Positions 28,760-60,870 of a stretch of 64,000 nucleotides of DNA are shown one piece after another; positions within the stretch are counted from its first letter, which is position 1, and the number at the start of each line of letters is the position of its first letter. A model generated the notes under the pieces. That model saw only the letters and a program-made list of their open reading frames with translations. It did not search any database and had not been told where the DNA came from. Both the position numbers and the translations under genes were made by a program. This stretch comes from an uncultured Nitrososphaerota archaeon (lineage in GTDB: Archaea; Thermoproteota; Nitrososphaeria; Nitrososphaerales; Gagatemarchaeaceae): positions 224,001-288,000 of the forward strand of contig CAVRAG010000004.1 of the NCBI GenBank assembly GCA_963718895.1. Direction: 5' to 3'.

Positions 28760-29275
28760 TCACATCTGGCGACTCTGCGGGAGAGACCTCCTTCTCAATG
28801 GGAACTCTTCAGTCGGCCAAATGTCCGGCGGTCTGAAGCAACCGCGATGATAGCCCCTGGGACTGAAGAAGTCCAACGCCCTTTCAGCCTCCCTTAGTTT
28901 CTCGCCCATGAGGAAGGGATGCACTTCTTGCACGATTCTTAGGGCTCTCAGACCAACAGCTCTCTTGACCCACACCGGCTGGAAGACGTGGTCGTCTTTC
29001 GGTCTAGAGGGTCTCGACATCCCGACAAGGGCGCAGAACTTGAAGATTGGGTCGGGATCGGTCATTCCGAATGCGAGCTGAATGGCCGTACTGTCCATGG
29101 ACTTCACGTAGTGGCTTTCTATGCAGCCTTCTCCCTGAATCAACCCTCCCACCCAGGATCTTCCCTCGGCTGATGTGATGACGACTCCGGGGACGATTCG
29201 CTGACGCGGTGATACTATGTCCACTCGCAATGACCTCCCTGATGTCCCCTTCATCGCAATTCTGTCCATCTTCAC
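28760..29275 (-). CDS. Single-motif LAGLIDADG endonuclease-like protein B
   Basis: SWVGGLIQGEGCI motif, MTDPDPI, VHPFLMGEK; paralog of the upstream gene. Confidence 0.7.
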   Translation of the reverse strand: MKMDRIAMKGTSGRSLRVDIVSPRQRIVPGVVITSAEGRSWVGGLIQGEGCIESHYVKSMDSTAIQLAFGMTDPDPIFKFCALVGMSRPSRPKDDHVFQPVWVKRAVGLRALRIVQEVHPFLMGEKLREAERALDFFSPRGYHRGCFRPPDIWPTEEFPLRRRSLPQSRQM

Positions 29276-29856
29276 ACCCCCCGTTTCGACCCGCGATGTT
29301 TCGTTCTTTGCGGGAAATCTTTCGGGGTCCAGATGTCACCGTTCCTGAAACATCCGCGATGGGAACCCTCGGGCTCAAAGAAACTCAGCGCTCTTTCAGC
29401 TTCCCTCCGCTTCGTGCCGACGAGAAATGGTAGGATCTCGTGCAGGACACGAAGGGCTCTCAGGACAGCGATGTTCTTGTGCCATAACGGCTTCCACTGG
29501 TGATTCTTGACTGGCTTCGTGGGTGGCTCAAGTCCAACATACTCTGACAGTCGGAAGATAGGGGCGGAATCCACCATTGACACGTGAAGAGCCAGGTAAG
29601 TTGTATTACTCTTCTTGAGGTAACCGCTCTGAATACAACCTTCTCCCTGGATTATTGAGGCGACCCAGGATCTTCTCTCCTCCGTAGGGATGACAACATC
29701 AGGAATGTCCTTTCGCATAACTACAGCCAAGTTCGGTCGCCGGTGCCATTCCTCAGGCGCCTTGATTCCCAGCTTTCGCATGTGACACCACACAGTCGTC
29801 GCTTGGCTGTATCCCATCCTCTTGGCTGCTTCAGTCCGGGTCTTGCTAGTCTTCAC
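29272..29856 (-). CDS. HTH plus single-motif LAGLIDADG endonuclease-like protein A
   Basis: N-terminal TRTEAAKRMGYS..TVWCHMRKLGI HTH; SWVASIIQGEGCI; ILPFLVGTK. Confidence 0.7.
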   Translation of the reverse strand: MKTSKTRTEAAKRMGYSQATTVWCHMRKLGIKAPEEWHRRPNLAVVMRKDIPDVVIPTEERRSWVASIIQGEGCIQSGYLKKSNTTYLALHVSMVDSAPIFRLSEYVGLEPPTKPVKNHQWKPLWHKNIAVLRALRVLHEILPFLVGTKRREAERALSFFEPEGSHRGCFRNGDIWTPKDFPQRTKHRGSKRGV

Positions 29857-30018
29857 TACCTCCTCGAAATACGCCGGAAACTCTGGACTTTCGAAGGGCG
29901 GTCTTGTTCCATAGGGAAACTTGTCCCAATTCTTACCTGCTTGCTGATCTGTGAGTCCGTGCTCGTTCTATCATTAACTTCCTCCGTCCTCTTATCCACC
30001 ACTGCATCATCGGTCATC

Positions 30019-30450
30019 TCAGACGCCTCCCAGCTCCCTGACCACGGACCCGAACTCCTCCATCGAGTAGGCCATGAAATCGGCGTCCTCCATGACCGCC
30101 CCGACGACGCTCCGGAGGGACTCCATGTCCACCTGCGGGAACTCGGCCAGCCCTAGGCACCTCACCCCCGGACGTACCGCCTTCAGCCTCCTGAACTTCA
30201 GGTTGACGTAGAGCGCGTTCCTCTCCGCCCAGCCCAAGGCAACCCCCCTCCGGCTCTCGCTCCTCCAGCACTCGATTACCGCGTCGAGCTTGGGTAGGAA
30301 GAAGTCAGGGACCATCAGCCGGGCGCCGACCTGGAATGTCACGTGCACCGAATACTCAAGGCGGAGGCCTTGGAGAAGGTCCCTCACTTCCTCTTCCTGC
30401 ATAGTCATCGGCGCACGGGCGTGCACCTTGCTCATCCATTTTGCAGACAT
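30019..30450 (-). CDS. PD-(D/E)xK (Vsr/DUF559-like) nuclease
   Basis: QEEEVRDLL..LEY..F..VPDFFLPKLDAVIECW. Confidence 0.65.
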   Translation of the reverse strand: MSAKWMSKVHARAPMTMQEEEVRDLLQGLRLEYSVHVTFQVGARLMVPDFFLPKLDAVIECWRSESRRGVALGWAERNALYVNLKFRRLKAVRPGVRCLGLAEFPQVDMESLRSVVGAVMEDADFMAYSMEEFGSVVRELGGV

Positions 30451-30481
30451 CTCTATCGCAAATAGATGGTAATGGGCTTAT

Positions 30482-30568
30482 TAAACACCACAAGGGATTT
30501 ATCTTGCGATTCTAAAGTAATAGAGTCTATTTTGGGCTAATCAGTCCCCATATCCGGCGTGGTGTTTA
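30482..30568. promoter_or_regulatory. Divergent promoters sharing an identical GTGGTGTTTA element (10-bp inverted repeat)
   Basis: TAAACACCAC 30482-30491 and GTGGTGTTTA 30559-30568, each about 30 nt upstream of a start codon. Confidence 0.7.
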
Positions 30569-30596
30569 TTGCCGAATCCGGCCTGTACACCCTGAG

Positions 30597-33287
30597 TTGG
30601 AGCGTCTCACCCGACCTTCCAAGCTCGTGCTGCTTGCGGCCGGTACCGACAAGGGGAGCCCGGTCCGCGTAGCCGACGCCATCTACGACTCCTTCAGGAG
30701 CTACCGGAACGACCGCTGCGCCGTCTTCACGCGGGACGACGAGATCGAACGGTTCCTGCAAGACTCGGGCATCGACGCGGAGCGCCTCGAGCCGGGAGAG
30801 AACCTCCACTGGCAGGGTGTGCAAACGAGCCTGAAGAGGAAGTGGAAACGCATTATCATCGGAGACTACGTCGACTGGTTCAGCTGGTGCATGCAGTGGC
30901 AGAGGTTCAACGCGTTCCACACCGTGATTCTCTTCAGGCCCCTCAGCCGGATGGCCGATGACGAGGGCAGAGGGTACATCGACGGCTTCCTGACGAGGCT
31001 GTTGAACAAGCCCAGCCTGCACAGGGTCATCGTAATCGAGGAGACTGGCCTCCTGCCTGTGGTCGAGCAATGGATGGGAGATGGCCCTTCAATCTCTCAC
31101 CCGGGACTCTCGGGTCGCTTCGGCACAGACGAGGTCCGCGAAGCAATCCTCGCTACACTCTTCGGGACCAGACTCTCACATACGGACCTGAACCGTGCGG
31201 TAGGCAGGACGCTGTCGGCCAAGCTGAACCCGGACTGGCCCTCCATCTTGCAGAAGACGGAATCATCTCCGAGGATTCTGAGGCGCAACAACTTCCGCTT
31301 GCTCACAGATGAAGCGATGGAGAGGGTTCAGAGTCTTAGCAAGATTTCAACTAAGACTGCCGAACAGGGGCCCGGACATGAGGAGCTCTTCCGGCTCTCC
31401 CGGAAGCGGGAGCATCTGCGGGCCGACGACCAGTGGATCGAGGAGCGGATTCTCACCCTGGTGGAGGAGCGCGGCTGGTTCACCACTCCTGTGCTGTACG
31501 ACTATGCAAGAAGCCAGCTCGAGGAAGTCCTGCGGAGCAGCACGCCGCCTCCCTGGGCTATCCTGGACCAGTTCGAGAGGGCCCCGAACGACCCGCCAAT
31601 GGTGAACCTCCCGAGCAGGGCTACGCTGAGGCGGGTCGCAGAGCGCATGATCACGGAGGGGCGGCTGGCCAGGTCGACCTGGTTCAGGGAGGTAGGGCGG
31701 CCGAGCACCGTGTACCACAAGCCCGGGTCAGGTGAGTTCGCCCAAGACAATCGATGTGGCCAGTGCGCGTTCTACGTCCCGCTGAGAAGACGCTGCCGGC
31801 TCTGGTGGCTCCTCGACAAGGCCTTCGGCACCCACGACCCGCGCTGGAGCAAGGAGGGGGCGCACCCCCTCTCCGAGTTCGAACTCTACAAGATGAGGAA
31901 CTCGTGGCGGATAAGCCCGCACTCCTCGGCCTGCGCCCGTTTCACCGACAAGAAGAAGGACCATTCGCGGAAGGAGGTCCCTGAGAGCTGCGAGATCTGC
32001 AGCGAACCCCTACCAGAATCCAAGTCCAGCCTAGTTATCTGCAGAAAATGCAGGACAAGGTACGCCACGGTCAAACGCCACGTCAGGGTGTTGACCGCGT
32101 ACGAGCACGAGTTCGAGAGGAACTACCGGGACCTCGCGGGCAGGGATTCTACGTCCGATGTCACGAGGCTGGAAGAGGAGAGACAAGGTTCCACTTCTAG
32201 AATCCTGGAACGCATCTACTATGATGAGCACCGTCCAGCGTCCGACGACAAAGACGAGCGCAGGACGCTGACGATCTATCCCGGGGACAGGATGCTGGTA
32301 AAGGAAGGTAAGCTCTACATCTTCAAGAGACGGAATGTCGAGGCTGTCCCACTGACAGGCACGACGCTCGTCGACAACGGCGTGATAGGTGAGGAACAGC
32401 TCAAGGCGCTCGAAGATGCGGGGGCGACCGTCCGGAAGGCAACAAGCTCCAATGCACCTCCCATGGAAGCGAAAGAACCAAGGTTTGACATCAGTCCACT
32501 CGTAGAAAGGGCCGTCCTCGAGCGCCCCGAACTCGCCCGCGGATTCGCCTTGGCCATGGCCAAGAGCGCAATCGACGCCACCGAGAGAATAGCCGCCCTC
32601 CCGCAGACGCAGGAGGCGGAGGCCATACCTTTGAAGAGGGAAGAGCTCCGGCTTTTCGGGCGTCTGGAGAGATCCGGCCCGAACGGGTTCCTGACCTTCG
32701 AGGCGCGGATCATGATTCAATACTGGAAGTGCTTCAACCTGCCGCTCCGACGCGTCTTCGAAAGGTTCGGGCCCCGCAAGCGCTCACGTTTCGTGAGAGA
32801 GAGCGTGACGGCTGCGTCGGGCAGGGCCAGGGGGTACTCCGCGGTGGACGCGGCGATAAACTACCTGCACCAGAGGCGGCTCTTCAAGTGCAGACAGGTC
32901 AACATCCAGCTGGGGCTCGAATACAACCCGGGGGAGGGCTTTTTGCACAGGAGGAGGTGGAACTCGGATGGCCTAGGCCTGCTTCTCGACCTCATCGACC
33001 CCTTCAAGTTCGCTGACAGGGAGAAGCTCCTGAGCGCGATACTGGATTCAAGAGTCAACTGGAGGGACTTCTACAGCTCGACGGACAGGCACGGAGTCCG
33101 GTTCTACTATCCGAAACCGGAGGCGATAGGCACGCTCGAGGGCGTGGGCGAGGAAGCAGACAAGAGCATGGTGGAGTACAAAGGCGTCAAGCTCCCGCTT
33201 ATGGAAGCTTACCGGACCACGGTCTCCGATCTGATTGAGAACCTTCAGAAGGACGGGAAACCGTCTTTCACACCTTTCGCATACTGA
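30597..33287 (+). CDS. cas1: Multidomain Cas1 fusion: degenerate Hel308/Ski2-like region, wHTH, Cys clusters, C-terminal Cas1 domain
   Basis: Cas1 beta domain TLTIYPGDRMLVKEGKLYI..VPL (from about aa 555); catalytic-type motifs FE702ARIMIQYW, DAAINYLH, GLEYNPGEGFLH784, LLD798LIDPFKFAD. Confidence 0.8.
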   Translation: MERLTRPSKLVLLAAGTDKGSPVRVADAIYDSFRSYRNDRCAVFTRDDEIERFLQDSGIDAERLEPGENLHWQGVQTSLKRKWKRIIIGDYVDWFSWCMQWQRFNAFHTVILFRPLSRMADDEGRGYIDGFLTRLLNKPSLHRVIVIEETGLLPVVEQWMGDGPSISHPGLSGRFGTDEVREAILATLFGTRLSHTDLNRAVGRTLSAKLNPDWPSILQKTESSPRILRRNNFRLLTDEAMERVQSLSKISTKTAEQGPGHEELFRLSRKREHLRADDQWIEERILTLVEERGWFTTPVLYDYARSQLEEVLRSSTPPPWAILDQFERAPNDPPMVNLPSRATLRRVAERMITEGRLARSTWFREVGRPSTVYHKPGSGEFAQDNRCGQCAFYVPLRRRCRLWWLLDKAFGTHDPRWSKEGAHPLSEFELYKMRNSWRISPHSSACARFTDKKKDHSRKEVPESCEICSEPLPESKSSLVICRKCRTRYATVKRHVRVLTAYEHEFERNYRDLAGRDSTSDVTRLEEERQGSTSRILERIYYDEHRPASDDKDERRTLTIYPGDRMLVKEGKLYIFKRRNVEAVPLTGTTLVDNGVIGEEQLKALEDAGATVRKATSSNAPPMEAKEPRFDISPLVERAVLERPELARGFALAMAKSAIDATERIAALPQTQEAEAIPLKREELRLFGRLERSGPNGFLTFEARIMIQYWKCFNLPLRRVFERFGPRKRSRFVRESVTAASGRARGYSAVDAAINYLHQRRLFKCRQVNIQLGLEYNPGEGFLHRRRWNSDGLGLLLDLIDPFKFADREKLLSAILDSRVNWRDFYSSTDRHGVRFYYPKPEAIGTLEGVGEEADKSMVEYKGVKLPLMEAYRTTVSDLIENLQKDGKPSFTPFAY

Positions 33288-33696
33288 GCAGACAGCCCTT
33301 CGCCCAAACGGCCTCGAGTTTAGGGTCTGTCACCGTCCTCCAGAAATCGAAATGCTTCAGCGTCTCCTCTCTCGTCATGAACTGCACCGGCCTCGTCACG
33401 CTAACCATCTTTTCGTGGAACAGCTCATGCACAGGAATGGGCCGGGCGAGGGCATGGTTCACTTCGACGCCGACGCCAGAGGTGATCCTGTTCAGGAGCC
33501 TGCTGAAGACCAGCCCGTCGCAGCAGTCTATCAGTCCAAACCAGTACGCCATCCCATCCTTCTTACCCTGATCGTTCTGAAGAGTTCCTGGATTCACTAT
33601 CTCGCAACCGGGCAAGTGGGTAGCTATCGCAAGCATCTCGGCTTTCTCGAGCGCGGTCCCGTAGAGGCACATGGCATGGGCGTAGTAGACCCGCAC
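33268..33696 (-). CDS. Nucleoside 2-deoxyribosyltransferase-like protein
   Basis: VYYAH, IVNP, IDCCDGLVF, TSGVGVEVNHA..IPV. Confidence 0.6.
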   Translation of the reverse strand: MRVYYAHAMCLYGTALEKAEMLAIATHLPGCEIVNPGTLQNDQGKKDGMAYWFGLIDCCDGLVFSRLLNRITSGVGVEVNHALARPIPVHELFHEKMVSVTRPVQFMTREETLKHFDFWRTVTDPKLEAVWAKGCLLSMRKV

Positions 33697-33864
33697 ACAT
33701 CATCCTAGTACAAAGAAACTCGGGCCTATAATCGCCATGGTGCATCTGCGAATGCGACCAGAAGGTGCACCAAACAATCAAAGTATATTTAACCAACCAG
33801 ATTTGGTCGTGGCCACCCGAGGTTAGAGAAAATCAAAGGACGCAATTACCGCGAAGTTAAGTCA

Positions 33865-34347
33865 ATGGCTTACACCAGCAAGTACTACGCACCCGGCGCA
33901 CCCAACTCCAAGGTCGCCAGGTTCACCACAGGAAAGGCGAACCCCGACTACAACTACTGCATCAACCTGGTCTCCAGGGGAAGGGTCCAGATCAGGCACA
34001 ACGCCCTCGAGGCGGCCCGTGTGGCTGCGAACAAGAAATTGGTCAGCCTTGGAGAAGAGGGGTACCTTCTCACCGTGAAGACATACCCTCATATAATTTT
34101 GAGAGAGAACAAGATGATCGCCACCGCAGGCGCAGACAGGCTCCAGGAGGGTATGAGGAAGGCCTTCGGCAAGCCGATAGGTCTGGCCGCCCGCGTGGAC
34201 ATAGGCAGCACGATACTCGAGCTCCAGGTCAAGACGGCCGACCTCCAGCTGGGCAAGAACGCGCTCCACGCGGCGAAGGCGAAGCTGGGCGTGCTCACGG
34301 ACGTCGTAGCCGTAGAGATCCCGAAGGCCCCCACGCCCGCTGCCTAG
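33865..34347 (+). CDS. rpl10e: 50S ribosomal protein uL16 (L10e)
   Basis: [49 protein letters not shown]. Confidence 0.97.
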   Translation: MAYTSKYYAPGAPNSKVARFTTGKANPDYNYCINLVSRGRVQIRHNALEAARVAANKKLVSLGEEGYLLTVKTYPHIILRENKMIATAGADRLQEGMRKAFGKPIGLAARVDIGSTILELQVKTADLQLGKNALHAAKAKLGVLTDVVAVEIPKAPTPAA

Positions 34348-34538
34348 CCGCTGACCAGTCGGCATAGTCAAGGCGTTAATCGACAGAGGATTTCAAGCAG
34401 GTAGATGCTGCGCACAGGATTCATCACTCATCCGGGGACTCATCCAGGTACGTCGGTTGTGATAGGATGTCAAGGCGGGAATTCCAGTTGCTCTCCGGGC
34501 TTTTACGTGCGAACCGCGTCGGACCCCGAGGCCCTCTC
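34304..34538 (+). repeat. rpl10e 3' end plus first array repeat (copy A)
   Basis: Directly repeated at 38386..38618; ends CTTTTACGTGCGAACCGCGTCGGACCCCGAGGCC. Confidence 0.85.
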
Positions 34539-34675
34539 TCGTCCCACCTCCGTCCCGCGCGACGCTACCAAGAGGCGACTCTGGAACTTCGGCAAGGCAG
34601 AGAGTGTTCCTCTATTCCTACATGAGTTGCCCCGAATAATCTTGGGTTGACGGCTGCCTTCGGAGGTTAGTCTAT

Positions 34676-37227: not shown

Positions 37228-37531
37228 AGGAAAGAGATCGCCTGGTCGAACCGGTGATTTCCTCCGGGTGGCCTAGAAAGCGAGAATTTCGCTAGGATAG
37301 GATCGAGAGTTACAGCCACCGAATGAAGTCCTGTCGGTGAGGTCTGGTCAAGCCCGAGGTGGATTCTCGATCGATGGCGGCGCGGGCAGGGCATGGAAGA
37401 GAGGAAGCCCATTCAAGCGATAATATACTCTGTTTAACGTAAGGACGTACTTTCGATACACCAGATTCATAACAGAGGTCTCGGGCATGAGGATGGCCTC
37501 GCGGTCTGAATAACGCTATTATAGTCGCTGG

Positions 37532-38385: not shown

Positions 38386-38618
38386 TCGTGGCCGTAGAGA
38401 TCCCGAAGGCCCCCACACCCGCTGCTTAGCCCCTGCCCGGTCGCCCCAACATCTCAGCCGCTCATCGGCAGGGGATTTCAAGTAGGTGGATTGCTGCGCA
38501 CAGGGCTCATCGCGCATCCGGTGACTCATTCCGATACGTCGGTGGTGATAGAATGTCAAGGTAGGTATTCCGATTGCTTTCCGGCTTTTACGTGCGAACC
38601 GAGCCAGGCCCCGAGGCC
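38386..38618 (+). repeat. Duplicated rpl10e 3' end plus array repeat (copy B)
   Basis: GCCGTAGAGATCCCGAAGGCCCCCACACCCGCTGCTTAG followed by a diverged copy of the rpl10e downstream region. Confidence 0.85.
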
Positions 38619-38707
38619 GAAGCTATTGTGAATCGAGTCTGACGCTCGCTAGCCCGCTCATGAAGAAGGATAGTTCCGTGTAGCCAACGACGCGGAAGCG
38701 CTCGATT

Positions 38708-39357: not shown

Positions 39358-39464
39358 CTTGACCGACTCCCATTGAGTCGTTGAACAGTTGAACTATTTA
39401 ACCGTTCGACCCAATCGGGCGCTACTCTTTCCTGCTCCTGCGAGCCGACGCATCGTCCGGTGAA

Positions 39465-39690
39465 CTCCCGGCTTCCTACGTGCGAACCGCGCCAGGGCCT
39501 CGAGGCCCTCTCCCCCGTCCGAGCTACGTCTTGTCTTAGATGCGGAATGGGCCTGAAGCCGTGCAAAGGGTTCATTGAGCCTCCGCCGGTCCACTTTATC
39601 CAGGTTCGTCAGCTATTGTAAGTGAGCCGGGGTGGGTATTCCAATTGCTCTCCGGGCTTCTACTTGCGAACCGCGCCGGGCCCCGAGGCC
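39465..39690 (+). repeat. Array repeat copy C: full unit of about 185 bp bounded by two cores
   Basis: GCGAACCGCGCC cores at about 39482 and 39666. Confidence 0.9.
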
Positions 39691-39707
39691 GCTCGAATCG
39701 ACCGCTT

Positions 39708-42212: not shown

Positions 42213-42299
42213 GGCACCAAAGGACCTGACTGCGAAGTTACTGAATCGTGATTAATAGTTATGTCCGAACACCGAGGGAAAGGAAAATCTGTTCTTTCG

Positions 42300-42436
42300 T
42301 CGGCTTTTACGTGCGAACCGCACCAGGTCCCGAGGCCGGAGCCAAGGCGCACTTCTTTCACAGCCCAACGTGTGGATGAAATGGCCCGGCGGAGGCGCGA
42401 TGAACCCTAGACGTGGCACGCCTTGGGCATTCTCGA
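42300..42436. repeat. Array repeat core (copy D, +) followed by an inverted internal fragment (about 42372-42436, -)
   Basis: CGGCTTTTACGTGCGAACCGCACCAGGTCCCGAGGCC; GGATGAAATGGCCCGGCGGAGGCGCGATGAACCCT is the reverse complement of the unit's middle. Confidence 0.8.
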
Positions 42437-44660: not shown

Positions 44661-44826
44661 TTATATCCTCCGCGAGAACAAGATGATCGCCACCGCAGGC
44701 GCAGACAGGCTCCAGGAGGGGATGAGGAAGGCCTTCGGCAAGCCTATAGGTCTGGCCGCCCGTGTGGACATCGGCTCCACGATACTCGAGCTCCAGGTCA
44801 AGACGGCGGACCTCCAGCTGGGCAAT
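44661..44826 (+). pseudogene. Internal fragment of a second rpl10e allele
   Basis: [53 protein letters not shown] is identical in protein to about 34095-34255, with synonymous DNA differences. Confidence 0.9.
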
Positions 44827-44865
44827 GAACGCTCTCACACTGCTTCGAAGAGACGATGAACGAGC

Positions 44866-48099: not shown

Positions 48100-48222
48100 G
48101 GGTTCATTGAGCCTCCGCCGGTCCACCCTATCCAGGTTCGTCAGCTATTGTAGGTGAGCTGAGGTGGGTATTCCATCTGCTCTCCGCGCTTCTACGTGCG
48201 AACCGCGCCGGGCCCCGAGGCC
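48100..48222 (+). repeat. Array repeat copy E
   Basis: Near-identical to 39568-39690. Confidence 0.9.
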
Positions 48223-48321
48223 GAAACCTCGACCTTGGCAGTGCGCTACCTCCTTTCTCCCAGTTCACACTCCGTCCCGACCGTGGAAGTATGCGATTTG
48301 AATGCCGCTCAATCCAAACAC

Positions 48322-48753
48322 CTAGTCTGCGATCTTCGGACTAAACTTCCGAGGATCCACCCTCGTGAGTCCTGGCACCCTGTCGTATACTTCGTCTGTG
48401 GACAGGATCGTCCTGTCCGAATCCTGATTCAGCGCAGTCGCCGCGTAAATCGCATCGAAGAGGCCTGTGACCTTGAACGACTTCATGATGGATTGTGCCG
48501 CCAGCAGGACCTCTGCCGTAACCGGAAGGATGGAGAGACCATCGATCCCCGCGATTTCGGCCTGCTTGCCAAGCACCGCCGCCTTATCGAATCCGAAATC
48601 CTCCAAGACATAATAGAGTTCGATGAGCACGGCCGCTGAGGTGTTCAGCTTCAGCTTGTTCCGTCGCAGCGATTCGAAGATGGGGTCGGCGTACTGCTTC
48701 AACCAGTCGGTCTTCTTCGAGTACGCCACGAAGAGGTCCGATTCGATGATCAT
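48322..48753 (-). CDS. vapC: PIN-domain toxin
   Basis: IIESDLFVAY, FDAIYAATAL, STDEVYD. Confidence 0.85.
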   Translation of the reverse strand: MIIESDLFVAYSKKTDWLKQYADPIFESLRRNKLKLNTSAAVLIELYYVLEDFGFDKAAVLGKQAEIAGIDGLSILPVTAEVLLAAQSIMKSFKVTGLFDAIYAATALNQDSDRTILSTDEVYDRVPGLTRVDPRKFSPKIAD

Positions 48754-48983
48754 CTCTGTCGTCGCCTCGTTGCGCGCGCTCTGACCTCTTCGGCAAGCTT
48801 TCTCTCCGCCCGCTCCTTGGCCGACTTTCCTGTCACCTTCGTGTCCGACTCAACCGGCGCTCTCGCTATCGGAATCACCATGTACGAGTCGCCCATGTGG
48901 ATTACCAGCGCCCTGTCTGCCTCTATCCGCATCTCCTTCGGGATGGTGACCCGTCCACGTGCGTCAATCTCGACTACCGACAT
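48750..48983 (-). CDS. vapB: AbrB-type antitoxin
   Basis: MSVVEIDARGRVTIPKEMR; ATGA overlap with the toxin. Confidence 0.85.
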   Translation of the reverse strand: MSVVEIDARGRVTIPKEMRIEADRALVIHMGDSYMVIPIARAPVESDTKVTGKSAKERAERKLAEEVRARATRRRQR

Positions 48984-49152
48984 TAGCCCAAAAACGGGGA
49001 CTGCGCCCATATTTATCATTTGTGGGTAGAAATGAACTATTGCCCACGGAGCGATTTTTGGACCGGGGATCTCCGCCTGACCAGCCACGGCCAGCATGAA
49101 AGTTAGCCCATCCAGCAATCCCAACTCGGTCTGAGGGCTCTTGTTCAATGAG

Positions 49153-49275
49153 CTCCGGGCTTTTGCGTGCGAACCGCGTTAGGCCCCGAGGCCTCTCCAT
49201 CCGTCCGAGCTGCGTCTTGTCCTGGATGCGGAAGAGGCCTGAAGCCATGAATAGGGTTCATTGCGCCTCAGCCGG
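49153..49275 (+). repeat. Array repeat copy F
   Basis: Matches 39465-39590. Confidence 0.9.
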
Positions 49276-49283
49276 AGCATGCC

Positions 49284-51651: not shown

Positions 51652-51806
51652 TTTGTTAGATTCGTGCCGCTACCGCCGTCATGATAATTTTCTCTAGGTG
51701 AAGGATCAAGGGCGGCGCTTGGTGACCGGCCCGCCGTAGTCCTCCAGCCCGTTCGGACAAAGGTGTATTACAAAGTGCATCCGGCTGCAGACGAAAGGCG
51801 ATCGGC

Positions 51807-53988: not shown

Positions 53989-54002
53989 GGGAGCCGGACC
54001 GC

Positions 54003-54248
54003 TCAAACGAACCTCACCAGCGGCCCGTTCGGCTCGGAGACGACGACGACTCCGTGATGGACCAGCGCGTAGGAAATCGAGCCGTGCAGGGGATACAGAA
54101 GTTCAAACGGGCAGAAGCACTGAGGACAGGAGACTCCGCAGGGGGTGGACTGGCCCATCGGGAATATCGGGACGAGGAGTACAAAGAGAAAGACTGCGAC
54201 GGCGGCTATGGTGATTGCAATCGGACCGACCGCTCTCCGATGATGCAC
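54003..54248 (-). CDS. Small membrane protein with Cys-rich loop (distant variable-loop family)
   Basis: HRRAVG plus TM plus PIFP-CGVSCPQCFC-SISYALVHHG; motif at 54277. Confidence 0.55.
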   Translation of the reverse strand: MHHRRAVGPIAITIAAVAVFLFVLLVPIFPMGQSTPCGVSCPQCFCPFELLYPLHGSISYALVHHGVVVVSEPNGPLVRFV

Positions 54249-54317
54249 GGCAACTCGGCTGGTTAGAGTGCGATTGGTGATTAATAGTTTTGTCCGAACG
54301 CCGAAGAGGAAAGATTG

Positions 54318-54459
54318 ATTGTTTCCCCAGCTTTTGGGGGCGAACCACGCCGGGGCGCCGGGGCCCTCTCCCTCCGTCCGAGCTGGGTCTTGTTCTAGAT
54401 GCGGAAGAGACCTGAAGCCATGCAAAGGGGTCATTGCGCCTCCGCCGGTGCACTTCATC
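54318..54459 (+). repeat. Array repeat copy G
   Basis: Matches 39465-39600. Confidence 0.85.
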
Positions 54460-54497
54460 AGCGCGTTGTTCTACGCTCAGCGGCGGCCAATCAGCCT

Positions 54498-54722
54498 CTA
54501 GAGCAAATCGATGAATTGTTCCGTGGTGAGTCCTGAATCCTTGATGATTGCTCTGAGCGTACCCTTTGCGATTTCTTTGTGGTTTGGGATGGTTAGACGG
54601 CGATGAGGCGCTTCCTTGTGCCTCAGAATCATGTGGCTCCCGGTCTGATGGTCGAGTGAATATCCGGCCTTCGAGAGGGCCTTCACGACTTCCCTTCCTG
54701 AGACTACGGGAAGCTTAGGCAC
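54498..54722 (-). CDS. hicA: HicA toxin
   Basis: SGREVVKAL..GSHMIL..IPNHKEIAKGTLRAII. Confidence 0.92.
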   Translation of the reverse strand: MPKLPVVSGREVVKALSKAGYSLDHQTGSHMILRHKEAPHRRLTIPNHKEIAKGTLRAIIKDSGLTTEQFIDLL

Positions 54723-54927
54723 TGACCTCTACCACTTCCTCGTCTATTGAGGGTGGTATGGGCTCGCGGTGCTTCTTCAGACTTGCGAGATAACCGTTGA
54801 TGGCGTCCTTGATGTTCGCCAGCGCGTCGGCCCTCGTCGCTCCCTGAGAAACGCACCCCGGTAACGACGGACACCTGGCTACGAAGACTCCGTCCTCGTC
54901 CTGTTCGATGGTTACCCGGTACTTCAT
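54715..54927 (-). CDS. hicB: HicB antitoxin
   Basis: IEQDEDGVFVARCPSLPGCVSQGAT..ALANIKDAI. Confidence 0.92.
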   Translation of the reverse strand: MKYRVTIEQDEDGVFVARCPSLPGCVSQGATRADALANIKDAINGYLASLKKHREPIPPSIDEEVVEVSA

Positions 54928-55004
54928 GTTCTAGAATTCCAGACTGGCGGGTTAAAATCCTTTGGTCTGCTGGTGCACTTCTCACTGTGATGCGCGTGAG
55001 AGCA

Positions 55005-55123
55005 GTTCATCCTGACTTCGTCGGGCACTTCATCCAGGTAAATCAGCTATGGCAGGAGGGCCGAGGTGGGTACTCCAATTGCTCTCCGGCTTTTACGTGC
55101 GAACCCCGCCGCGCCCCGATGCC
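55005..55123 (+). repeat. Array repeat copy H
   Basis: CATCCAGG..GGTGGGTACTCCAATTGCTCTCCGGCTTTTACGTGCGAACC. Confidence 0.85.
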
Positions 55124-55134
55124 GATGTACATTA

Positions 55135-55395
55135 TCACCGCAAAAGCTGGCTCAGGTCGAGGATCTCGACTGCCACCGCTTGATCGCCGTGGTCTTCGTA
55201 GAAGAAGACTGCCAATCCGTCCTTTGATGGCTCCCCGACCGGCTTCTCCACGTGTCTGAACCTGAGGTACAGGTCGTCGTGTTCGCCGTAATCCACGGCC
55301 AGAACGGTCCTGGGGAGCTTCACCTTGTATCTCTGCTCCAGCTTCGACAGTATCTTCCTCAGGTCCAAGTCCAAGATTGTCGTTCTGCTCGTCAT
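55135..55395 (-). CDS. DUF2283-like putative antitoxin
   Basis: DYGEHDDLYLRF...AVEILD. Confidence 0.65.
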   Translation of the reverse strand: MTSRTTILDLDLRKILSKLEQRYKVKLPRTVLAVDYGEHDDLYLRFRHVEKPVGEPSKDGLAVFFYEDHGDQAVAVEILDLSQLLR

Positions 55396-55700
55396 TGTGC
55401 CCAGTACCTCCTGTTCTTCCTCTTCTCGTTGATTATGAATGCCGTCTTAATTAAGCCTCTATCTGCTTCTGCGACTCTGTAGATCACGACGAGGAAATGG
55501 CTCTTGTCGATGCGCTTCAAAGCGTGGCACCCGCCGCGCTCGTCTTTGTGCAGCTCATCAGGGTCGGATACCGCCTGCATCAATACGCTCGGGTCGGTCC
55601 CCACCTCCGGGTGCCTGAATCGCACGTGGAGCCAGTCGTCTCTCGTCAGAGTGATCTTCTTCCCGTCTGGGGTTGTTGCGACCGCGGGAAGGCCTTCCAA
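55392..55700 (-). CDS. RelE/ParE-superfamily (BECR-like) putative RNase toxin
   Basis: ITLTRDDWLHVRFRHPE..SDPD..LVVIY..LIKTAF; ATGA overlap with the downstream gene. Confidence 0.65.
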   Translation of the reverse strand: MEGLPAVATTPDGKKITLTRDDWLHVRFRHPEVGTDPSVLMQAVSDPDELHKDERGGCHALKRIDKSHFLVVIYRVAEADRGLIKTAFIINEKRKNRRYWAQ

Positions 55701-55768
55701 GTCTGGTCTTCTGCGATTCCAATGCCGGGTGCGGCTATAAGCGCCTTGTGTCTTCCGGGGTTACTTTC

Positions 55769-55812
55769 TGATTGAGAGTTTTTTCCGAACCGCGTCAGGT
55801 CCCGAGGCCCTC
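55769..55812. repeat. Chimeric site: promoter motif joined to the array repeat tail at CGAAC (copy I)
   Basis: TGATTGAGAGTTTTTTCCGAAC (19/22 match to 54278-54299) followed by CGCGTCAGGTCCCGAGGCCCTC. Confidence 0.75.
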
Positions 55813-55900
55813 TTCAGCGGTAGCAAGCGCGACAAGCATGGGATCGAAAGGGTTGCGAGGACCATGGTCCAAGTGCGGCTTCTCCAGCGAAGGGGCCCCG

Positions 55901-56479
55901 CTAGGAGATCGTGGCACTCCCAGACCAGCCGCCGCCACAAGCAGTGATTACCTGGATTCCGTTGATGGCATCATTCACGCTTCCCCCAAAACCGGGAGCG
56001 ATGCCGGAGCGGGACCCGTTCACCGCGCCTGAAGGAAGGTTCAGCTCGACCGTAGCCGTACCGCCTCCGCAGATGGGGCCACTGAACTGATAGATGTGTC
56101 CCTCGTACGGGACGTTGAACGTGAAGGACCACCCGGCGAGGTCAGAAGATGGCACCGAGACGTAGCCGGTCGAGTTCGTCACGAAATCCCAGTTGCCGAG
56201 TATGGTACTCGTGGGTTTGGACGGTGTATTCTCCGAGGTACCTATCGGACAGAGCTCGTACAGCCAGCCCTTGACGCCCAGACCGCTCACCGGGTAGGCG
56301 GGCGTTGTCGTTACGATGTGGACGTACAGATTATCCCCCGGAGTGAACACACATTCGATGCTCGGTCTGGAGTAGGTCGAGTAGATGGAATAGCTCGCGC
56401 CCGCTACGACCAGAACCAGGACAAGGACGAGGGCGAGCATGACCCGTCGAGAAGGCCGTTTCTTCTGTGGCGCTTCCAT
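55901..56479 (-). CDS. Membrane-anchored extracellular protein
   Basis: Basic N-terminus, TM helix, four Cys; motif at 56503. Confidence 0.6.
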   Translation of the reverse strand: MEAPQKKRPSRRVMLALVLVLVLVVAGASYSIYSTYSRPSIECVFTPGDNLYVHIVTTTPAYPVSGLGVKGWLYELCPIGTSENTPSKPTSTILGNWDFVTNSTGYVSVPSSDLAGWSFTFNVPYEGHIYQFSGPICGGGTATVELNLPSGAVNGSRSGIAPGFGGSVNDAINGIQVITACGGGWSGSATIS

Positions 56480-56609
56480 GTCTCGCGCGCCCACTGATGA
56501 GAAGATTTACGCTTTTGTCCGAACGGTTCTACTAAGTCTTCGTCATTCGAGGCCTGACTTTAGGGCCGTTAACTGTGGTCAGTTATCGGGTCGTTACTCG
56601 AATCATCAA

Positions 56610-57053
56610 TCAGGGAGGGACTATTATTGTGATTGGGGTATTGGGATAGGACACTGCGGCGTTGGATATGGTTACGGCTGCGAACGTGACCGAATACACC
56701 CCCGGCGGGATTGACTGTAGGTCCATCAGGAACACAGGTAAGGTCTGATTGAACCCCATCGTCGTCGTACCGTCGGCCACATAGATCGCGGTGTCTCCCT
56801 TGAAGGTAGCAAAGACCACGACGGTCAAGGGAGGCTCAGGCTCCTCGCTCGTGACGTTGACTCTGATTCCTGAATAATACCCCAGAGTGACATATTGGGC
56901 GCTATTCGAGTTGAAGCAGACTCCACAGAGAGTTATGATGTGCTGAGTGCTACCGGATACTGCAGGACCACTTGCCAAGGCGGGAATCAGCGCCGCTGCT
57001 ATCACAATCGCTGCCGCGATGACGCGATAGCTTCGAACCGGCCGAGAGCTCAA
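56610..57053 (-). CDS. Secreted or membrane-anchored protein
   Basis: Signal-like helix, Ig-like PPGVYSVTF. Confidence 0.55.
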   Translation of the reverse strand: MSSRPVRSYRVIAAAIVIAAALIPALASGPAVSGSTQHIITLCGVCFNSNSAQYVTLGYYSGIRVNVTSEEPEPPLTVVVFATFKGDTAIYVADGTTTMGFNQTLPVFLMDLQSIPPGVYSVTFAAVTISNAAVSYPNTPITIIVPP

Positions 57054-57157
57054 ACCGAAGCGCCTTGAGACGTCGCGCCCGACTTCGTGATTAATAGCTA
57101 TGCCTCAGTGATTGGAATCCAGAACATTCGTGGCGGCTTCTGGCAAAGGGAGGAGCG

Positions 57158-57409
57158 TCAATCGGTCACTGGTATTGGCGGGTTACATGTCATGTAGATG
57201 GACCCCTTCCAGAGGGAATCACCGAATCCAAGAGTAGCGCAACTGACCGAACTATAGATAGCATTTGAGGCACCGTTGCCCTTTGTGCTTGTAATGCAAC
57301 TACCGCCGCACGATTGACCAGTTTTCACCACTGGAGCGAGGGAGAAGACAAGTAGGGATACACCCACAATCCCGACGACCAAAACAACGGCTTTTGACTG
57401 GCGCTTCAT
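57158..57409 (-). CDS. Small membrane protein, distant variable-loop family member
   Basis: MKR+TM+PVV-CGGSC loop-SVSCATLGFG; motif at 57436. Confidence 0.55.
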   Translation of the reverse strand: MKRQSKAVVLVVGIVGVSLLVFSLAPVVKTGQSCGGSCITSTKGNGASNAIYSSVSCATLGFGDSLWKGSIYMTCNPPIPVTD

Positions 57410-57501
57410 GCCAAGAACCTCAGCCACCGGATTCTTGACTAATAGTCTTGTCCGAACTGGATTGGGTTTGAAGCATCTGGAGCTCATTGGGCCTAAACGC
57501 G

Positions 57502-58359
57502 TCAATTGACGCTAACGTAGAAGGTGATGAAGTCCGAGCCAGCATTCCATTCGATGCCGGCAGAAGGATCGGTCTGCTCTGTGAACCACACGCCCTTCGG
57601 CGGTTGGGTGTAAGCGATGTAGGCGAACCCGGTGAAATTCGTGTCCAGTGTCACCGTAAAGGGATTCCAGTATTCAACAGCCCGCGTCCCAGACGTGACG
57701 GCGATCTCGGGGAGCCCTATCAAGAATTGGTGCGTGTCATTTGAGTTCGGCAGTGGATAATGGGTCACGTTGGTTACGTTGTATTCCGTTATCGTTCCTG
57801 AATAATTCTGTCCCAGATTTGGGGATATCGCAGTGAAATTGACCCCTTCGAATACGATGGATCTGGCGTCGAACACGCTCTGCAGAGGCACGCTCAGGTG
57901 TCTGTATTCTACACCCTTGATGGTGACCGTATCAGACGAGATTTCGTGGGTTAGAGCCCCAATCTGCTCCTGCTGGTAGACGGCCACAGAACCGAGCACG
58001 ATCAGGACCACTAGCAGGCCGGCAAGCATGGCCTTCTGGTGCGACAGGTGGAGGGCGGGCCTCGCACTCGGGTGCCCCTCGTCCTGCTTTCTGCCTGCAT
58101 CGATTATCCGGAGAGCCTCCTTCCCTTCGTCAGTGACCGTGTACAGACCCTGGCCATTCAGCTTGACCAGCCCCGACAGCCTGCCCAGGTGGAACGAGAG
58201 GAGCCCGTTGCTCTCGAGCCCTACCGCGTGCTTGAGCTCCGAGAAGGGGAGCGGCCTTTCGCTTACAGCCTGAAGTATCCTGATTCTTGTGGGATGCCCG
58301 AGGGCCTCGAACACCTCAGCCCTCGATGAGTTGAACGATTCGTCGCCATTCCCTGACAC
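57502..58359 (-). CDS. ArsR-wHTH with TM helix and extracellular domain (membrane-tethered one-component regulator)
   Basis: EVFEALGHPTRIRIL..FSELK..LSFHL..YTVTDEG, single TM, beta-rich outer domain. Confidence 0.8.
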   Translation of the reverse strand: MSGNGDESFNSSRAEVFEALGHPTRIRILQAVSERPLPFSELKHAVGLESNGLLSFHLGRLSGLVKLNGQGLYTVTDEGKEALRIIDAGRKQDEGHPSARPALHLSHQKAMLAGLLVVLIVLGSVAVYQQEQIGALTHEISSDTVTIKGVEYRHLSVPLQSVFDARSIVFEGVNFTAISPNLGQNYSGTITEYNVTNVTHYPLPNSNDTHQFLIGLPEIAVTSGTRAVEYWNPFTVTLDTNFTGFAYIAYTQPPKGVWFTEQTDPSAGIEWNAGSDFITFYVSVN

Positions 58360-58511
58360 TTTGGCATGCGCTCCCGTAGCAGCAATGGGTGTGTCGTGAT
58401 TTAATGCCTCGTTCGTTGACCTGCCGAATCTTCCGATTATTGCAGGACAACGTTTCTTGACCCTCGTCTGGACTGGATGTTCTGTTGTGGTCGACTCTCC
58501 GGTTCGCCCAG

Positions 58512-58811
58512 TCAAGACCCCGACCGCAGCCGAGACAGCTTCAGGCTTCCCACGTGGTCGACAATCCATCGGACGATTCCGTCGTAGGCCTCTGAACCCG
58601 ACCGGGTGAGCTGCACCTGGCCGTCCGCGTCGAGTCTGACGAACCCCTTCTCCGTCATCCAGTCCATGTACCTGACGAGGCGGTCGTACGAGAGCCCCGT
58701 CGCCGCCGCGAGCGCTGTCCTGTTCATCGCTCCCTTCTCTTTCAGGGTCTTGACGATGCGAGCGAAGACGTACAGGTCAGGCCTTGTTGAACTCGGCCCT
58801 CTTGAACTCAG
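58512..58811 (-). CDS. wHTH (HTH_45-like) protein
   Basis: RPDLYVFARIV..NRTALAAATGLSYDRLVRYMDWM; open frame extends to CTG 58811. Confidence 0.7.
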   Translation of the reverse strand: MSSRGPSSTRPDLYVFARIVKTLKEKGAMNRTALAAATGLSYDRLVRYMDWMTEKGFVRLDADGQVQLTRSGSEAYDGIVRWIVDHVGSLKLSRLRSGS

Positions 58812-59469
58812 AGTAGAATCCCCTCAGGTCCCAGAACAGAAGATCGAGCGAGCGCAACCGGTTGAAGCCCGTCTCGAGGCTCTTCTTGCTGAATATCAGG
58901 ACAATTATGATGGATGCCGGGACGAGAAACTCCAGGACTGCGGGAACCCAGTACATCAGCCCTGCGAATTCGGCGATGACTGAGAGTAAGAAGTAGGTCA
59001 CGAGTGAGTAGCCGGCGACCTTGAGGATAGAGTAGAACAGGTACGCGATTCTCGAGGTGCTGACCATGCCCAGCTGCGACTCCCAGTCCAGCTCGGAGAG
59101 AAGTTTGACGGCTCCCGGGACGCCCTCCTCCATGGTCTTCTTCCATTCGCCCATCTTGGTCCGGCTAACCCTCCGGTCGACCCAGAGTATACCTCCGAGG
59201 AAGCCTCCCAGGACGATGATGCCGACCGCGAGGGAGGCGAAATTGCTCGACGGGATTCCGCTGAACGAGAAGTTCGCGCCGTTGACGGGAAATCCGGAAG
59301 TCACCTCGTACACGCCATCGAAGAATACAATGAGGATCGAGGCGATAATTGTGACCACCAAGATTGCCAGGAAGTCGAGCATCGCATAGGCGAGCTCCCT
59401 GTACTTCCGTACGTCGTCGAGGGCCCGCATGAGGTCGCTGACCTGCTCGACCACCTCCGCTTCGCTCAT
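58777..59469 (-). CDS. Four-TM membrane protein
   Basis: Hydrophobic helices; operonic overlaps with both neighbours. Confidence 0.65.
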   Translation of the reverse strand: MSEAEVVEQVSDLMRALDDVRKYRELAYAMLDFLAILVVTIIASILIVFFDGVYEVTSGFPVNGANFSFSGIPSSNFASLAVGIIVLGGFLGGILWVDRRVSRTKMGEWKKTMEEGVPGAVKLLSELDWESQLGMVSTSRIAYLFYSILKVAGYSLVTYFLLSVIAEFAGLMYWVPAVLEFLVPASIIIVLIFSKKSLETGFNRLRSLDLLFWDLRGFYSEFKRAEFNKA

Positions 59470-59957
59470 AGGGACACGCCCAGCACGCGGACCGAGACCA
59501 TGGCAGCCCCGTTAATCACGAGGTAGAATACGTGAATCCCTTTGATGGGGACCGGAATGGCGTTGAACGTCAGGAAGTCCGTGGCGTTCTGTCCGGTGAG
59601 GACCGACGCGTCGAGCGGATGATTCCCGTAGACGGAGTATCCTTCGCCGCTCGTGCCGACGTCCTCGAACGTATAGTAGATGGTGTTGGGCAGGACGATG
59701 GACTCGCTCCGGGTGACCCCCTGGATGGTCGTGCTCGTCCCGTTCGGGAAGGTCACTGACGCCGACTGGTTCACCCCGTCAGGCTGGATTGTTATCAGGA
59801 CGCGCGCATAGACGTAGTCTTCCTTGGCAATCACGAGGACCGAGGTTCCAGAGTTCCCTGTCTGATAGAAAGAAGGTTGTGGGCTCTGGAACAACGATAG
59901 TGTGGGCGCGACCAACACGAGAATCAGAACCAGGACCAGGAGCCATCTGACTCTCAT
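59466..59957 (-). CDS. Secreted or membrane-anchored protein
   Basis: N-terminal signal helix; first gene of a three-gene operon. Confidence 0.6.
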   Translation of the reverse strand: MRVRWLLVLVLILVLVAPTLSLFQSPQPSFYQTGNSGTSVLVIAKEDYVYARVLITIQPDGVNQSASVTFPNGTSTTIQGVTRSESIVLPNTIYYTFEDVGTSGEGYSVYGNHPLDASVLTGQNATDFLTFNAIPVPIKGIHVFYLVINGAAMVSVRVLGVSL

Positions 59958-60028
59958 AAATCGCAGCGCCTCTCGAGTCTATTTAAGGCGGACTCACTCG
60001 GAGAGAGTCCCCAGGCGCTCGTTGGTCT

Positions 60029-60178
60029 GAGATGCCGAAGAATGGGAGTGCCACGTATTGGGTTCGTTGCGCCTCCGCCGGTCCACCCTATCCAGGTTCG
60101 TCAGCTACTGTGAGTGAGCCGTGGTGGGGGTTCCAATTGCTCTCCGGGTTTCTGCGTGCGAACCGCGCCGGGGCCCTC
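60029..60178 (+). repeat. Array repeat copy J
   Basis: GGGTTCGTTGCGCCTCCGCCGGTCCACCCTATCCAGGTTCGTCAGCTA...GTGCGAACCGCGCCGGGGCC. Confidence 0.9.
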
Positions 60179-60319
60179 TTGCTACCCAGAAGAAGTTGGC
60201 AGATCTCTCTGGGAATGATTGCGAGACCCAGCTCTCCCTTAAATACGTGAAGGTGCTCTCCGACATCGTGGCGCTCATCCGCGAGTTGACTCTTCCTCGT
60301 AAAACGGTGGATTCAGAGC

Positions 60320-60712
60320 TTGGATGATGCCGTGCTCAAGCGGAGACTTGCATCGATGTTGAGGTTCGATCCTGCAATCAGGTATGTCATGTTAATCGGA
60401 GAGGACGACAAGCCTCTGTCTTCCGTCTCTAGAAGAAGCGATAAGTCGGCCCTCGAGCCTCCTGGACAGGGGAACCTAGTGCTCAGGCGGTTCGCGATCG
60501 CTCGGGGCATGGCGTCGACATCTGATTCATTTTACGGCCCAGCGCGCTTCGTCATACTACTGCGAGAGAAACTGATCGAGATAGTCTACCTGTCAGCCGC
60601 GAATATGATTCTAGTGGGGGCTGACCCTGATTTCCCCCTCGAGAAGGTCAAGCGACTTGCCAAGGTCTTGGACAAGGTTCAAATCAGGAGTCGGGCAACT
60701 CCGAAGTCTTGA
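60320..60712 (+). CDS. Roadblock/profilin-like small protein (DUF6659-like)
   Basis: DPAIRYVMLI..FYGPARFVILLREKL. Confidence 0.55.
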   Translation: MDDAVLKRRLASMLRFDPAIRYVMLIGEDDKPLSSVSRRSDKSALEPPGQGNLVLRRFAIARGMASTSDSFYGPARFVILLREKLIEIVYLSAANMILVGADPDFPLEKVKRLAKVLDKVQIRSRATPKS

Positions 60713-60751
60713 CTGGGACGCGTAGTCGCCCCGCTTCGTCTGCCGCGAACA

Positions 60752-60870
60752 GGGTCTATCGCGCCACCGCCAAGCCACCCATCCAGATACATCGGCTTTG
60801 GCAAGAGGATGTTGGAGGGACGGTTCCATCTCTCTCGGGTCTTACGTGTGAACCGCGCCGAGGCCCTCTC
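60752..60870 (+). repeat. Degenerate array repeat copy K (distal)
   Basis: ATCCAGATAC...CTCGGGTCTTACGTGTGAACCGCGCCGAGGCCCTCTC. Confidence 0.7.

Follow-up and report, generated by a model that had tools for sequence, protein, structure and literature searches.

Two separate things appear to flank rpl10e, the L10e ribosomal protein gene, in the 64,000-nt stretch of archaeal DNA analysed here (hereafter the window; positions 224001-288000 of contig C4): on its 3' side an array of gene cassettes, which would be one instance of a platform found across the genus, and on its 5' side an independent module built around a gene for a Cas1-domain fusion protein. We favour this reading as a whole, if only modestly; that the array is independent of the Cas1 fusion is a conclusion in which we place considerable confidence. 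The window's own genome (G000; 3.13 Mb in 11 contigs, 80.5% complete) was compared with 22 genomes of the same genus, and a second set consisted of 22 Cas1-fusion loci of other genomes; below, G-numbers denote genomes compared and L-numbers denote loci from genomes. Homologs of G000 genes are labelled Thaumarchaeota or Nitrososphaerales in the sources, and the related genomes are to be read as kin rather than as independent samples. A literature search found no description of such arrays or of the Cas1 fusion family.

Downstream of rpl10e, the window contains 12 co-oriented repeat sites between positions 34491 and 60873, bearing out the dozen or so that an initial annotation, made from the sequence alone, had counted from the rpl10e 3' end. 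A 17-nt core (≤2 mismatches) occurs nine times in the window, compared to 0.02 occurrences expected from shuffled sequences. Genome-wide, we found 12 good core copies, all on the plus strand of C4:258504-301013 (window 34504-77013). Since core copies reach window position 77013, the array continues beyond the window end; comparison with G011 placed its distal end near window position 82,400, where conserved synteny resumes, giving an array of ~48 kb. Three modules make up the repeat. R1 comprises the core followed by a GGCC..GGCC hairpin and copies the 3' flank of rpl10e, R3 is a 22-nt core with flanks that copies the 3' end of 23S rRNA together with its trailer, and R2 is a 21-mer rich in AT. 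At the hybrid sites, 55770 and window position 73815, an R2 left arm meets an R1 right arm in a shared CGAAC, and the two R1 cores of one 'empty' unit (39464-39691) lie 184 nt apart. Displaced pieces of rpl10e are also found within the array, at 38386-38443 (a copy of the gene's end, 90% identical), 44674-44836 and approximately window 76959-77006. A tRNA or noncoding RNA origin of the repeat was discarded, as ARAGORN and Rfam were both negative in the window.

Pfam matches among 45 open reading frames (ORFs) of the rpl10e array, drawn from the window and L001, comprised an ABC transporter, five PIN genes, a MazE-like gene, four winged helix-turn-helix (wHTH) regulators, a CAAX protease, an amine oxidase, a TatC-like protein and a complex-I/Mrp-like operon, the last being the cargo that follows the final R1 sites of the window. 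The toxin-antitoxin and ABC transporter cargo initially described is accordingly recovered by profile. The two-gene cassette within the site cluster at 54279-55813 is 85% identical to C8:1532041-1532544. The largest cassette measures ~9.9 kb, from the R1 at window position 60843 to that at 70712 (window 60900-64000 plus L001:1-6514), and encodes an antiporter-type subunit, NuoH, NuoK, a fused 30-kDa and 49-kDa subunit, and NuoB.

Neither R3 nor R2 is confined to this locus. R3 is present in 80 copies in the genome (≤4 mismatches), 63 of which form a second array beside the 23S rRNA gene on another contig (C8:1441758-1567973, 126 kb; L033 and L034). These 63 copies are co-oriented and spaced by 388 to 18,773 nt, with one or few ORFs per interval, and 42 of the 62 intervals have a minus-strand ORF as their longest. 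The last R3 and the 23S rRNA 3' end, as defined by Rfam, are 6 nt apart, and the junction between gene and array, together with the flank beyond it, is syntenic in G007, a single-contig genome of 2.25 Mb. R3 and its flanks match the last 23S nucleotides and the 23S trailer; the trailer is complementary to the 23S 5' flank, suggesting that its R3-matching part forms one strand of the 23S processing stem. The 49 copies of R2 concentrate in several variable regions; read on the minus strand, R2 precedes many ORFs and resembles an archaeal TFB-recognition element (BRE)/TATA promoter. The repeat is dispersed with respect to two of its three modules. Within the 23S array, C8:1476008-1493860 and C8:1520934-1537321, ~44 kb apart, represent a segmental duplication, and the duplicated runs have equal ORF sizes and near-identical repeat flanks.

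Cassettes turn over, and they are shared both between genomes and between the two arrays. In a stretch of 20 kb from the 23S array of G007, only 33% of the sequence had matches of at least 150 nt in G000; for the 5.8 kb nearest 23S the value was 0%, and for adjacent core DNA it was 90%. Cassettes shared by G007 and G000 were 89-94% identical, compared to 77-83% for core DNA. One such cassette was compared base by base: homology extends from the start of the first R3 22-mer to the end of the next, and the outer flanks are unrelated. One cassette of the G007 23S array was found, inverted, in the rpl10e array of G000. At the rpl10e locus itself, the distance from rpl10e to the shared distal flank is ~5.5 kb in G011, the closest relative with both flanks available, versus ~48 kb in G000, and the two arrays have nothing in common above 73% identity; one G011 cassette instead matches a G000 23S-array cassette from R3 to R3 at 88%. 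These comparisons of G011 and G007 with G000 uphold the earlier description of an integron-like array delimited by repeats, and they show its cargo to differ from one close relative to the next. Attempts to read exact cassette boundaries from paralogous cassettes gave fuzzy ends, and only the G007/G000 pair was clean from R3 to R3.

We next consider whether the array depends on the Cas1 fusion. An R3 21-mer was found in 19 of the 22 same-genus genomes (a reversed control pattern gave 0 hits), and the fusion in 10 of the 22; nine genomes had R3 and no fusion. G007 carries 32 R3 copies in its 23S-anchored array and has neither the fusion nor the partner gene that accompanies it elsewhere; a single R1 core lies ~180-190 nt downstream of its rpl10e, and a pair of LAGLIDADG-like genes, described below, is present. 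In G002, 17 R1 copies are distributed over several arrays, with at least five downstream of rpl10e and a dense array on its contig C10; fusion and partner are both absent from the 13.6 kb beside its LAGLIDADG-like pair, which is the canonical place. G011 has an rpl10e-anchored array from whose neighbourhood the counterpart of window 30184-33261, the Cas1 gene, is deleted. Conversely, 20 of the 22 Cas1-fusion loci were without any 13-mer in at least three copies within ~10 kb, a scan that detected R1 in the window as control; the exceptions, L006 and L014, have three R3 copies each. As for the neighbourhood proposed as a check on the homologs, the partner gene was directly upstream and divergent in 20/22 loci, and rpl10e lay within 10 kb in 12/22. 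The observations set beforehand as decisive included arrays without the fusion, the fusion without arrays, and dispersal of the repeat. These three were made, the last for two of the three repeat modules, and the link between Cas1 and the array is therefore refuted on these terms. The adjacency of a Cas1 gene to a striking array had been misleading, and comparison with ~40 relatives resolved the question.

The Cas1 assignment itself proved well founded. An AlphaFold model of the 896-aa protein (predicted local distance difference test, pLDDT, 81) displays, in order, an N-terminal alpha/beta region, a winged-helix region, two Cys4 zinc ribbons and a complete Cas1, whose beta N-domain begins at about residue 556 and whose helical catalytic domain spans residues 633-884. 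The zinc ribbon residues C387/C390/C400 and C465/C468/C482/C485 are invariant. Best PDB matches of the model in Foldseek were Archaeoglobus fulgidus Cas1 (4n06, E 4.2e-9) and a casposase integration complex (6opm, E 2.8e-8), and target TM-scores of 0.5-0.6 across ~370 columns identify a two-domain Cas1 fold. The protein itself had no match in Pfam, NCBIfam or PDB sequences, and a PF01867 search of the whole G000 genome was negative; PADLOC Cas1 models nevertheless match it directly (E 4.7e-6, residues 649-828). It has 76 homologs, and PF01867 (Cas_Cas1) is matched by 17 of 35 aligned family members, at best with 8.5e-11. In this 35-sequence alignment E702, H784 and D798 are invariant and D801 is conserved in at least 90%. 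The catalytic tetrad of Escherichia coli Cas1 is given as E141, H208, D218 and D221 in PMC4046053; the D-x-x-D spacing of the fusion fits this tetrad, with residue correspondence set by eye, without structural superposition. A profile search of PDB sequences returned zinc-ribbon noise only, and an Atlas search with residues 1-260 yielded nothing useful (0.76).

As the initial annotation had also noted for the window, cas2 and a short-spacer CRISPR array are lacking: Cas2 (PF09827) had no match in the 80.5% complete genome, and no CRISPR array was detected by TRF in the window or by a k-mer scan of that genome. Because a Cas1 fold and tetrad occur here without a Cas2 match and without a CRISPR-like array, we classify the gene as a Cas1-solo. 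No convincing terminal inverted repeats were found around 28000-34600, target-site duplications not having been searched separately; the best flanking inverted pair is 21 nt long, 76% complementary and within coding sequence. No polymerase was found among the Pfam-scanned ORFs of the window, and PF03175 (family B DNA polymerase) had no match in five genomes, a search in which the control genomes gave none either. The module is patchily distributed in one to three divergent copies per genome and is frequently broken. Decayed copies are present in G001, where the Cas1 gene is truncated, in G010, where a 30-residue remnant is all that persists of the partner gene, and in G011, G013, G020 and G022. 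G000 has no second copy of the fusion beside the 23S array or elsewhere in the genome. Window 18195-18296 (minus strand), 12 kb upstream of the intact gene, encodes a 34-residue remnant 74% identical to fusion residues 847-880, which has the appearance of a second copy that has decayed. A 261-nt stretch bordering the module (window 28391-28650) is 86% identical to C8:881296-881553.

Of the three genes near the fusion that were first described as nuclease-like, the partner could be assigned to the PD-(D/E)xK fold. Foldseek placed the Can2 nuclease domain first (E 6.5e-4), followed by AF1548, Vsr and Hef; nucleases of the restriction-endonuclease-like fold head this list, with only one at E ≤1e-3. 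D49, E60 and K85 are invariant in the partner alignment, and the canonical ExK motif here reads E-C-W. A Cas1-type integrase beside a PD-(D/E)xK nuclease recalls Cas1 with Cas4, a protein that carries a four-Cys Fe-S cluster. Unlike a CRISPR adaptation module, this pair is accompanied by neither Cas2 nor a short-spacer array, and just two Cys, C61 and C98, are conserved in the partner. A complex prediction for the Cas1 part and the partner scored 0.00; it gave no verdict and was used neither way. Fusion and partner are best described as an independent two-gene Cas1-solo unit that is predicted to be catalytically competent. Since the module is patchy, multi-copy and often decayed, it fits a selfish or defence-like integrase/nuclease element residing in the same variable neighbourhood.

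For the other two genes, the nuclease assignment is a motif and a lead only. Both paralogs contain, by eye, a LAGLIDADG-like 'LIQGEGC' motif; Atlas neighbours of 29272-29856 (P0080, the only paralog queried) all belong to LAGLIDADG families, at 0.86 and so below the 0.9 mark, and neither paralog matched Pfam even at E 10. The pair is linked to rpl10e across the genus, including where the fusion is absent, and rpl10e with this pair is the only block syntenic among relatives, the flanks varying on both sides (window; L003, L030, L032 and L039). The two may be free-standing homing endonucleases that ride beside rpl10e. Relative to rpl10e, the five-gene block 28760-33696 is flipped here compared to eight other loci. 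A simple inversion was considered and dropped, as synteny with L003 does not extend to the flanks beyond the block, and we state only the flipped orientation.

How the arrays are built is a separate question from whether Cas1 builds them. In the reading that we favour, arrays that have the rpl10e and 23S rRNA 3' ends as anchors would acquire, drop and swap cassettes through conservative recombination, each event taking place inside a short core (CGAAC for R1 and R2, the 22-nt core for R3). The cassettes measure 0.2 to 10 kb and lie between composite att-like units of R1, R3 and R2. The recombinase would be encoded elsewhere and act in trans, and successive insertions beside the anchor gene would push older cassettes, along with displaced anchor 3' ends, outwards. 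Conservative att-like recombination is suggested because the repeats copy anchor-gene ends, vary in extent and, at hybrid sites, have arms that meet at a short core. We regard such a site-specific, trans-acting mechanism as evenly poised between right and wrong. Bolder still is the proposal of an undescribed gene-capture platform in a soil and peat genus of Nitrososphaeria, with up to 60 or more horizontally exchanged cassettes per array, with copies of the 23S and rpl10e ends as sites, and with no IntI; this we advance tentatively and with more doubt than conviction. Its enzyme could be a co-opted Xer-like recombinase or an unrecognised protein, or, less likely, a Cas1-family integrase that duplicates the 22-nt core.

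Searches for the enzyme bear on this directly. G000 has four tyrosine recombinase (PF00589) loci, and, in agreement with the initial annotation, none is in the window; C4:258000-306000 likewise had no match. Three of the four are Xer-like, with a best score of 33.8 bits for TIGR02249, the integron-integrase model, against a cut-off of 265, the TGA-interrupted locus C4:99048 having been left out; an IntI encoded elsewhere, raised earlier as a possible explanation of the repeat, was thus not found among the three tested. No serine recombinase was found in G000. An integron attC reading had been suggested by 'GTTGGGC'/'GCCCAAC' in R3, which are like R'/R'' core sites. True attC sites are imperfect palindromes with a hairpin fold as single strands; eight repeat units were folded as single-stranded DNA, and no hairpin emerged, none being stabler than shuffled sequences (z +0.12 to +1.52). 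With no hairpin folding and no IntI, it therefore does not qualify as an integron strictly defined.

Several observations weigh against the favoured reading. Xer-like tyrosine recombinases are the sole candidates, and nothing links any enzyme to the arrays: the 45 Pfam-scanned ORFs of the rpl10e array include no recombinase, integrase or transposase, and the conserved Xer-like gene (C8:1338879-1340120) lies from 36 kb (G007) to ~229 kb (G000) from the 23S anchor. Two 22-nt cores around a cassette equally fit a staggered-cut, Cas1-type integration. All 10 Cas1-positive genomes of the genus are also R3-positive, and R3 lies a few kb from the Cas1 module in G009, G017 and L014. The relatives are mostly incomplete metagenome-assembled genomes (MAGs; 54-96% complete), such that absences are soft except in G007. 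Finally, the promoter role of R2 is a putative one.

The alternative that retains a role for Cas1 casts the fusion as an integrase that has been domesticated and that inserts DNA of gene size beside rpl10e and duplicates the target repeat, in the manner of CRISPR adaptation or casposons. The gene lies ~600 nt from rpl10e and stays within 10 kb of it in over half of the loci, its E/H/D/D tetrad is conserved in a fold like that of Cas1 and casposase, direct copies of a short core bound the cassettes, and casposons are reported to insert in the ef-2 3' end (PMC6563490). Set against this are the arrays without the gene in G007, G002 and G011, the 20 loci that have the gene without an array, and the position of the largest array beside 23S rRNA on another contig of a genome that has no second Cas1 copy. 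Moreover, module and array lie on opposite sides of rpl10e, 5' and 3' respectively, the orientation of the module is flipped versus eight loci, and adjacent repeat copies are merely 61-80% alike, of unequal extent and inclusive of displaced gene ends. The Cas1 fusion probably does not build the array, and we consider this account very improbable. We give similarly little credence to the idea that the LAGLIDADG-like pair cuts the repeat sites, with repeat-flanked cassettes copied in by break repair as in homing. In its favour, no other gene set remains beside rpl10e throughout the genus, the rpl10e fragments in the array suggest repeated repair or conversion, and the Atlas lead points to LAGLIDADG families; that lead is sub-threshold, however, so that endonuclease identity rests on it and on a motif, G003, G010, G020 and G021 hold 15 to 55 R3 copies without strong homologs of the pair, and the G002 rpl10e-anchored array has no pair in the 2.85 kb to the contig end.

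A more serious contender, although still an improbable one, dispenses with a dedicated recombinase. Here the repeats would be expression modules borne by numerous accessory genes, R2 a promoter and R3/R1 a terminator or RNA-processing element, and the arrays would grow and be shuffled by homologous recombination between the units after DNA uptake. Units of 60-230 nt that are 80-100% alike were judged long enough for this; the placement of R2 upstream of many minus-strand ORFs, that of R3 at ORF 3' ends, the predicted 23S processing stem of which R3 is one strand, the segmental duplication within the C8 array and the failure of recombinase searches to provide an enzyme for the arrays all agree with it. 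It does not explain how unrelated genes acquired the unit. In addition, the array copies are all co-oriented, two gene ends serve as their exact anchors, and hybrid sites join at a 5-nt core, which is too short for homologous recombination.

Chromosomal integrons and CALINs (attC clusters without IntI) have been reported in Archaea (PMC9668308). The arrays described here resemble both in being long and co-oriented, in having small cassettes with recombination-site-like repeats between them, in a cargo rich in toxin-antitoxin pairs and genes of no known role, and in cassettes that vary between relatives and are common to different genomes; as in CALINs, there is no adjacent integrase. In contrast to integrons, the repeats are copies of anchor-gene 3' ends rather than attC hairpins, no IntI was found, gene orientation is mixed and cassettes seem to come with a promoter-like box. 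Thaumarchaeal integrative mobile genetic elements (iMGEs) are described as accumulating in tandem at a gene 3' end through re-use of att sites (PMC6563490), with the staphylococcal cassette chromosome (SCC) arrays at rlmH of staphylococci as an analogue (PMC11470126). Direct repeats with the target-gene 3' end, displaced gene ends and insertion beside a conserved gene are common to tandem iMGEs and our arrays. The latter differ in comprising tens of 0.4 to 2 kb cassettes, with no integrase in the rpl10e-array cargo examined, in using the 23S rRNA gene as target, in their three-module units and in exchange between two differently anchored arrays. As for the fusion, it shares with Cas1-solo proteins and casposases (PMC4046053) a Cas1 fold, a full tetrad, the lack of cas2 and a CRISPR array, a thaumarchaeal host and a patchy, multi-copy distribution. 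It differs in ~550 extra N-terminal residues (alpha/beta, wHTH and two zinc ribbons) and in its constant PD-(D/E)xK partner and, unlike casposons, has no terminal inverted repeats that we could find and does not occupy the 3' end of its neighbouring gene.

Features of the window are collected in the table below. For the 142-aa ORF, the only match was DUF7768, at E 0.07. In L016, from another Nitrososphaerales MAG, the 3' part of rpl10e is doubled (4112-4335 and 7339-7562; 224 nt, 84% identity), the duplicate 3.2 kb downstream being the signature of one insertion at the rpl10e end. Elsewhere in the window, 10573-12477 (plus strand) encodes a 634-aa protein with DUF7436, a weak PLD-like stretch and a histidine-kinase/GHKL ATPase domain. 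In read data, eight runs contained parts of the window stretch (best word share 0.31); four runs were placed on the window, with Logan contigs of only 230-470 nt at low depth, and the three read joints listed, with sides of 20-38 nt, fall at repeat positions; as a whole the reads provide no usable evidence on circles, empty sites or habitat. Loose read ends at 48188 and 48222 were attributed to cross-mapping from the repeat copy at window position 70712.

Table. Genes of the rpl10e region, in the order in which they lie, and sites of the array (window coordinates)
Coordinates	Strand	Feature	Basis or remark
28760-29275, 29272-29856	-, -	Two paralogous LAGLIDADG-like genes, 171 and 194 aa	Motif, Atlas lead
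30019-30450	-	PD-(D/E)xK-fold partner	Model pLDDT 91, Foldseek, alignment
30597-33287	+	Cas1-solo fusion protein, 896 aa	Alignment, profile matches, AlphaFold model
33268-33696	-	142-aa ORF overlapping 3' end of Cas1 gene	Kept beside module in L003 and G011
33865-34347	+	rpl10e, proximal array anchor	Pfam L16/L10e, 3e-23
34400-34540	+	Native rpl10e 3' flank: first R1 site (34491-34534) and diverged R3-like stretch	
38386-38620	+	Second site: displaced rpl10e 3' end, flank and R1	234 nt, 82% identical to 34304-34533
39464-39691	+	Complete 'empty' unit: R1 core and GGCC..GGCC hairpin, linker, R3 (39568-39589), R1 core	
40936, 42250, 50441, 50995, 54279, 55770, 57437		R2 box between cassettes	GATTAATAGTT(A/T)TGTCCGAAC
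42250-42424	+	Composite site: R2 (42250-42270), R1 (42308 core), inverted R3 (42386-42407)	
44674-44836	+	Internal rpl10e fragment	163 nt, 94% identical to 34105-34266
48100-49275	+	R3+R1 site (48100-48223), PIN toxin-antitoxin cassette (48322-49148, -), R1+R3 site (49151-49275)	
54279-55813	+	Site cluster: R2 54279, R1 54322-54365, R3 54427, R1 55081-55124, hybrid R2-left/R1-right 55770-55813	
60060-60873	+	Last two R1 sites in window (60140-60183, 60830-60873)	Each after R3 or R3-like stretch

The fusion family represents an apparently active Cas1 that occurs without CRISPR or transposon ends, with no polymerase found among the scanned ORFs of the window, and with a constant PD-(D/E)xK partner. 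It widens the range of Cas1-solo architectures that bear on how Cas1 integrases were recruited. If the site-specific platform is real, it would be an integron-like system with different sites and a different enzyme, and hence a second, independent solution to modular gene capture, operating in archaea commonly found in acid soils and peat and using the end of an rRNA gene as a docking site.

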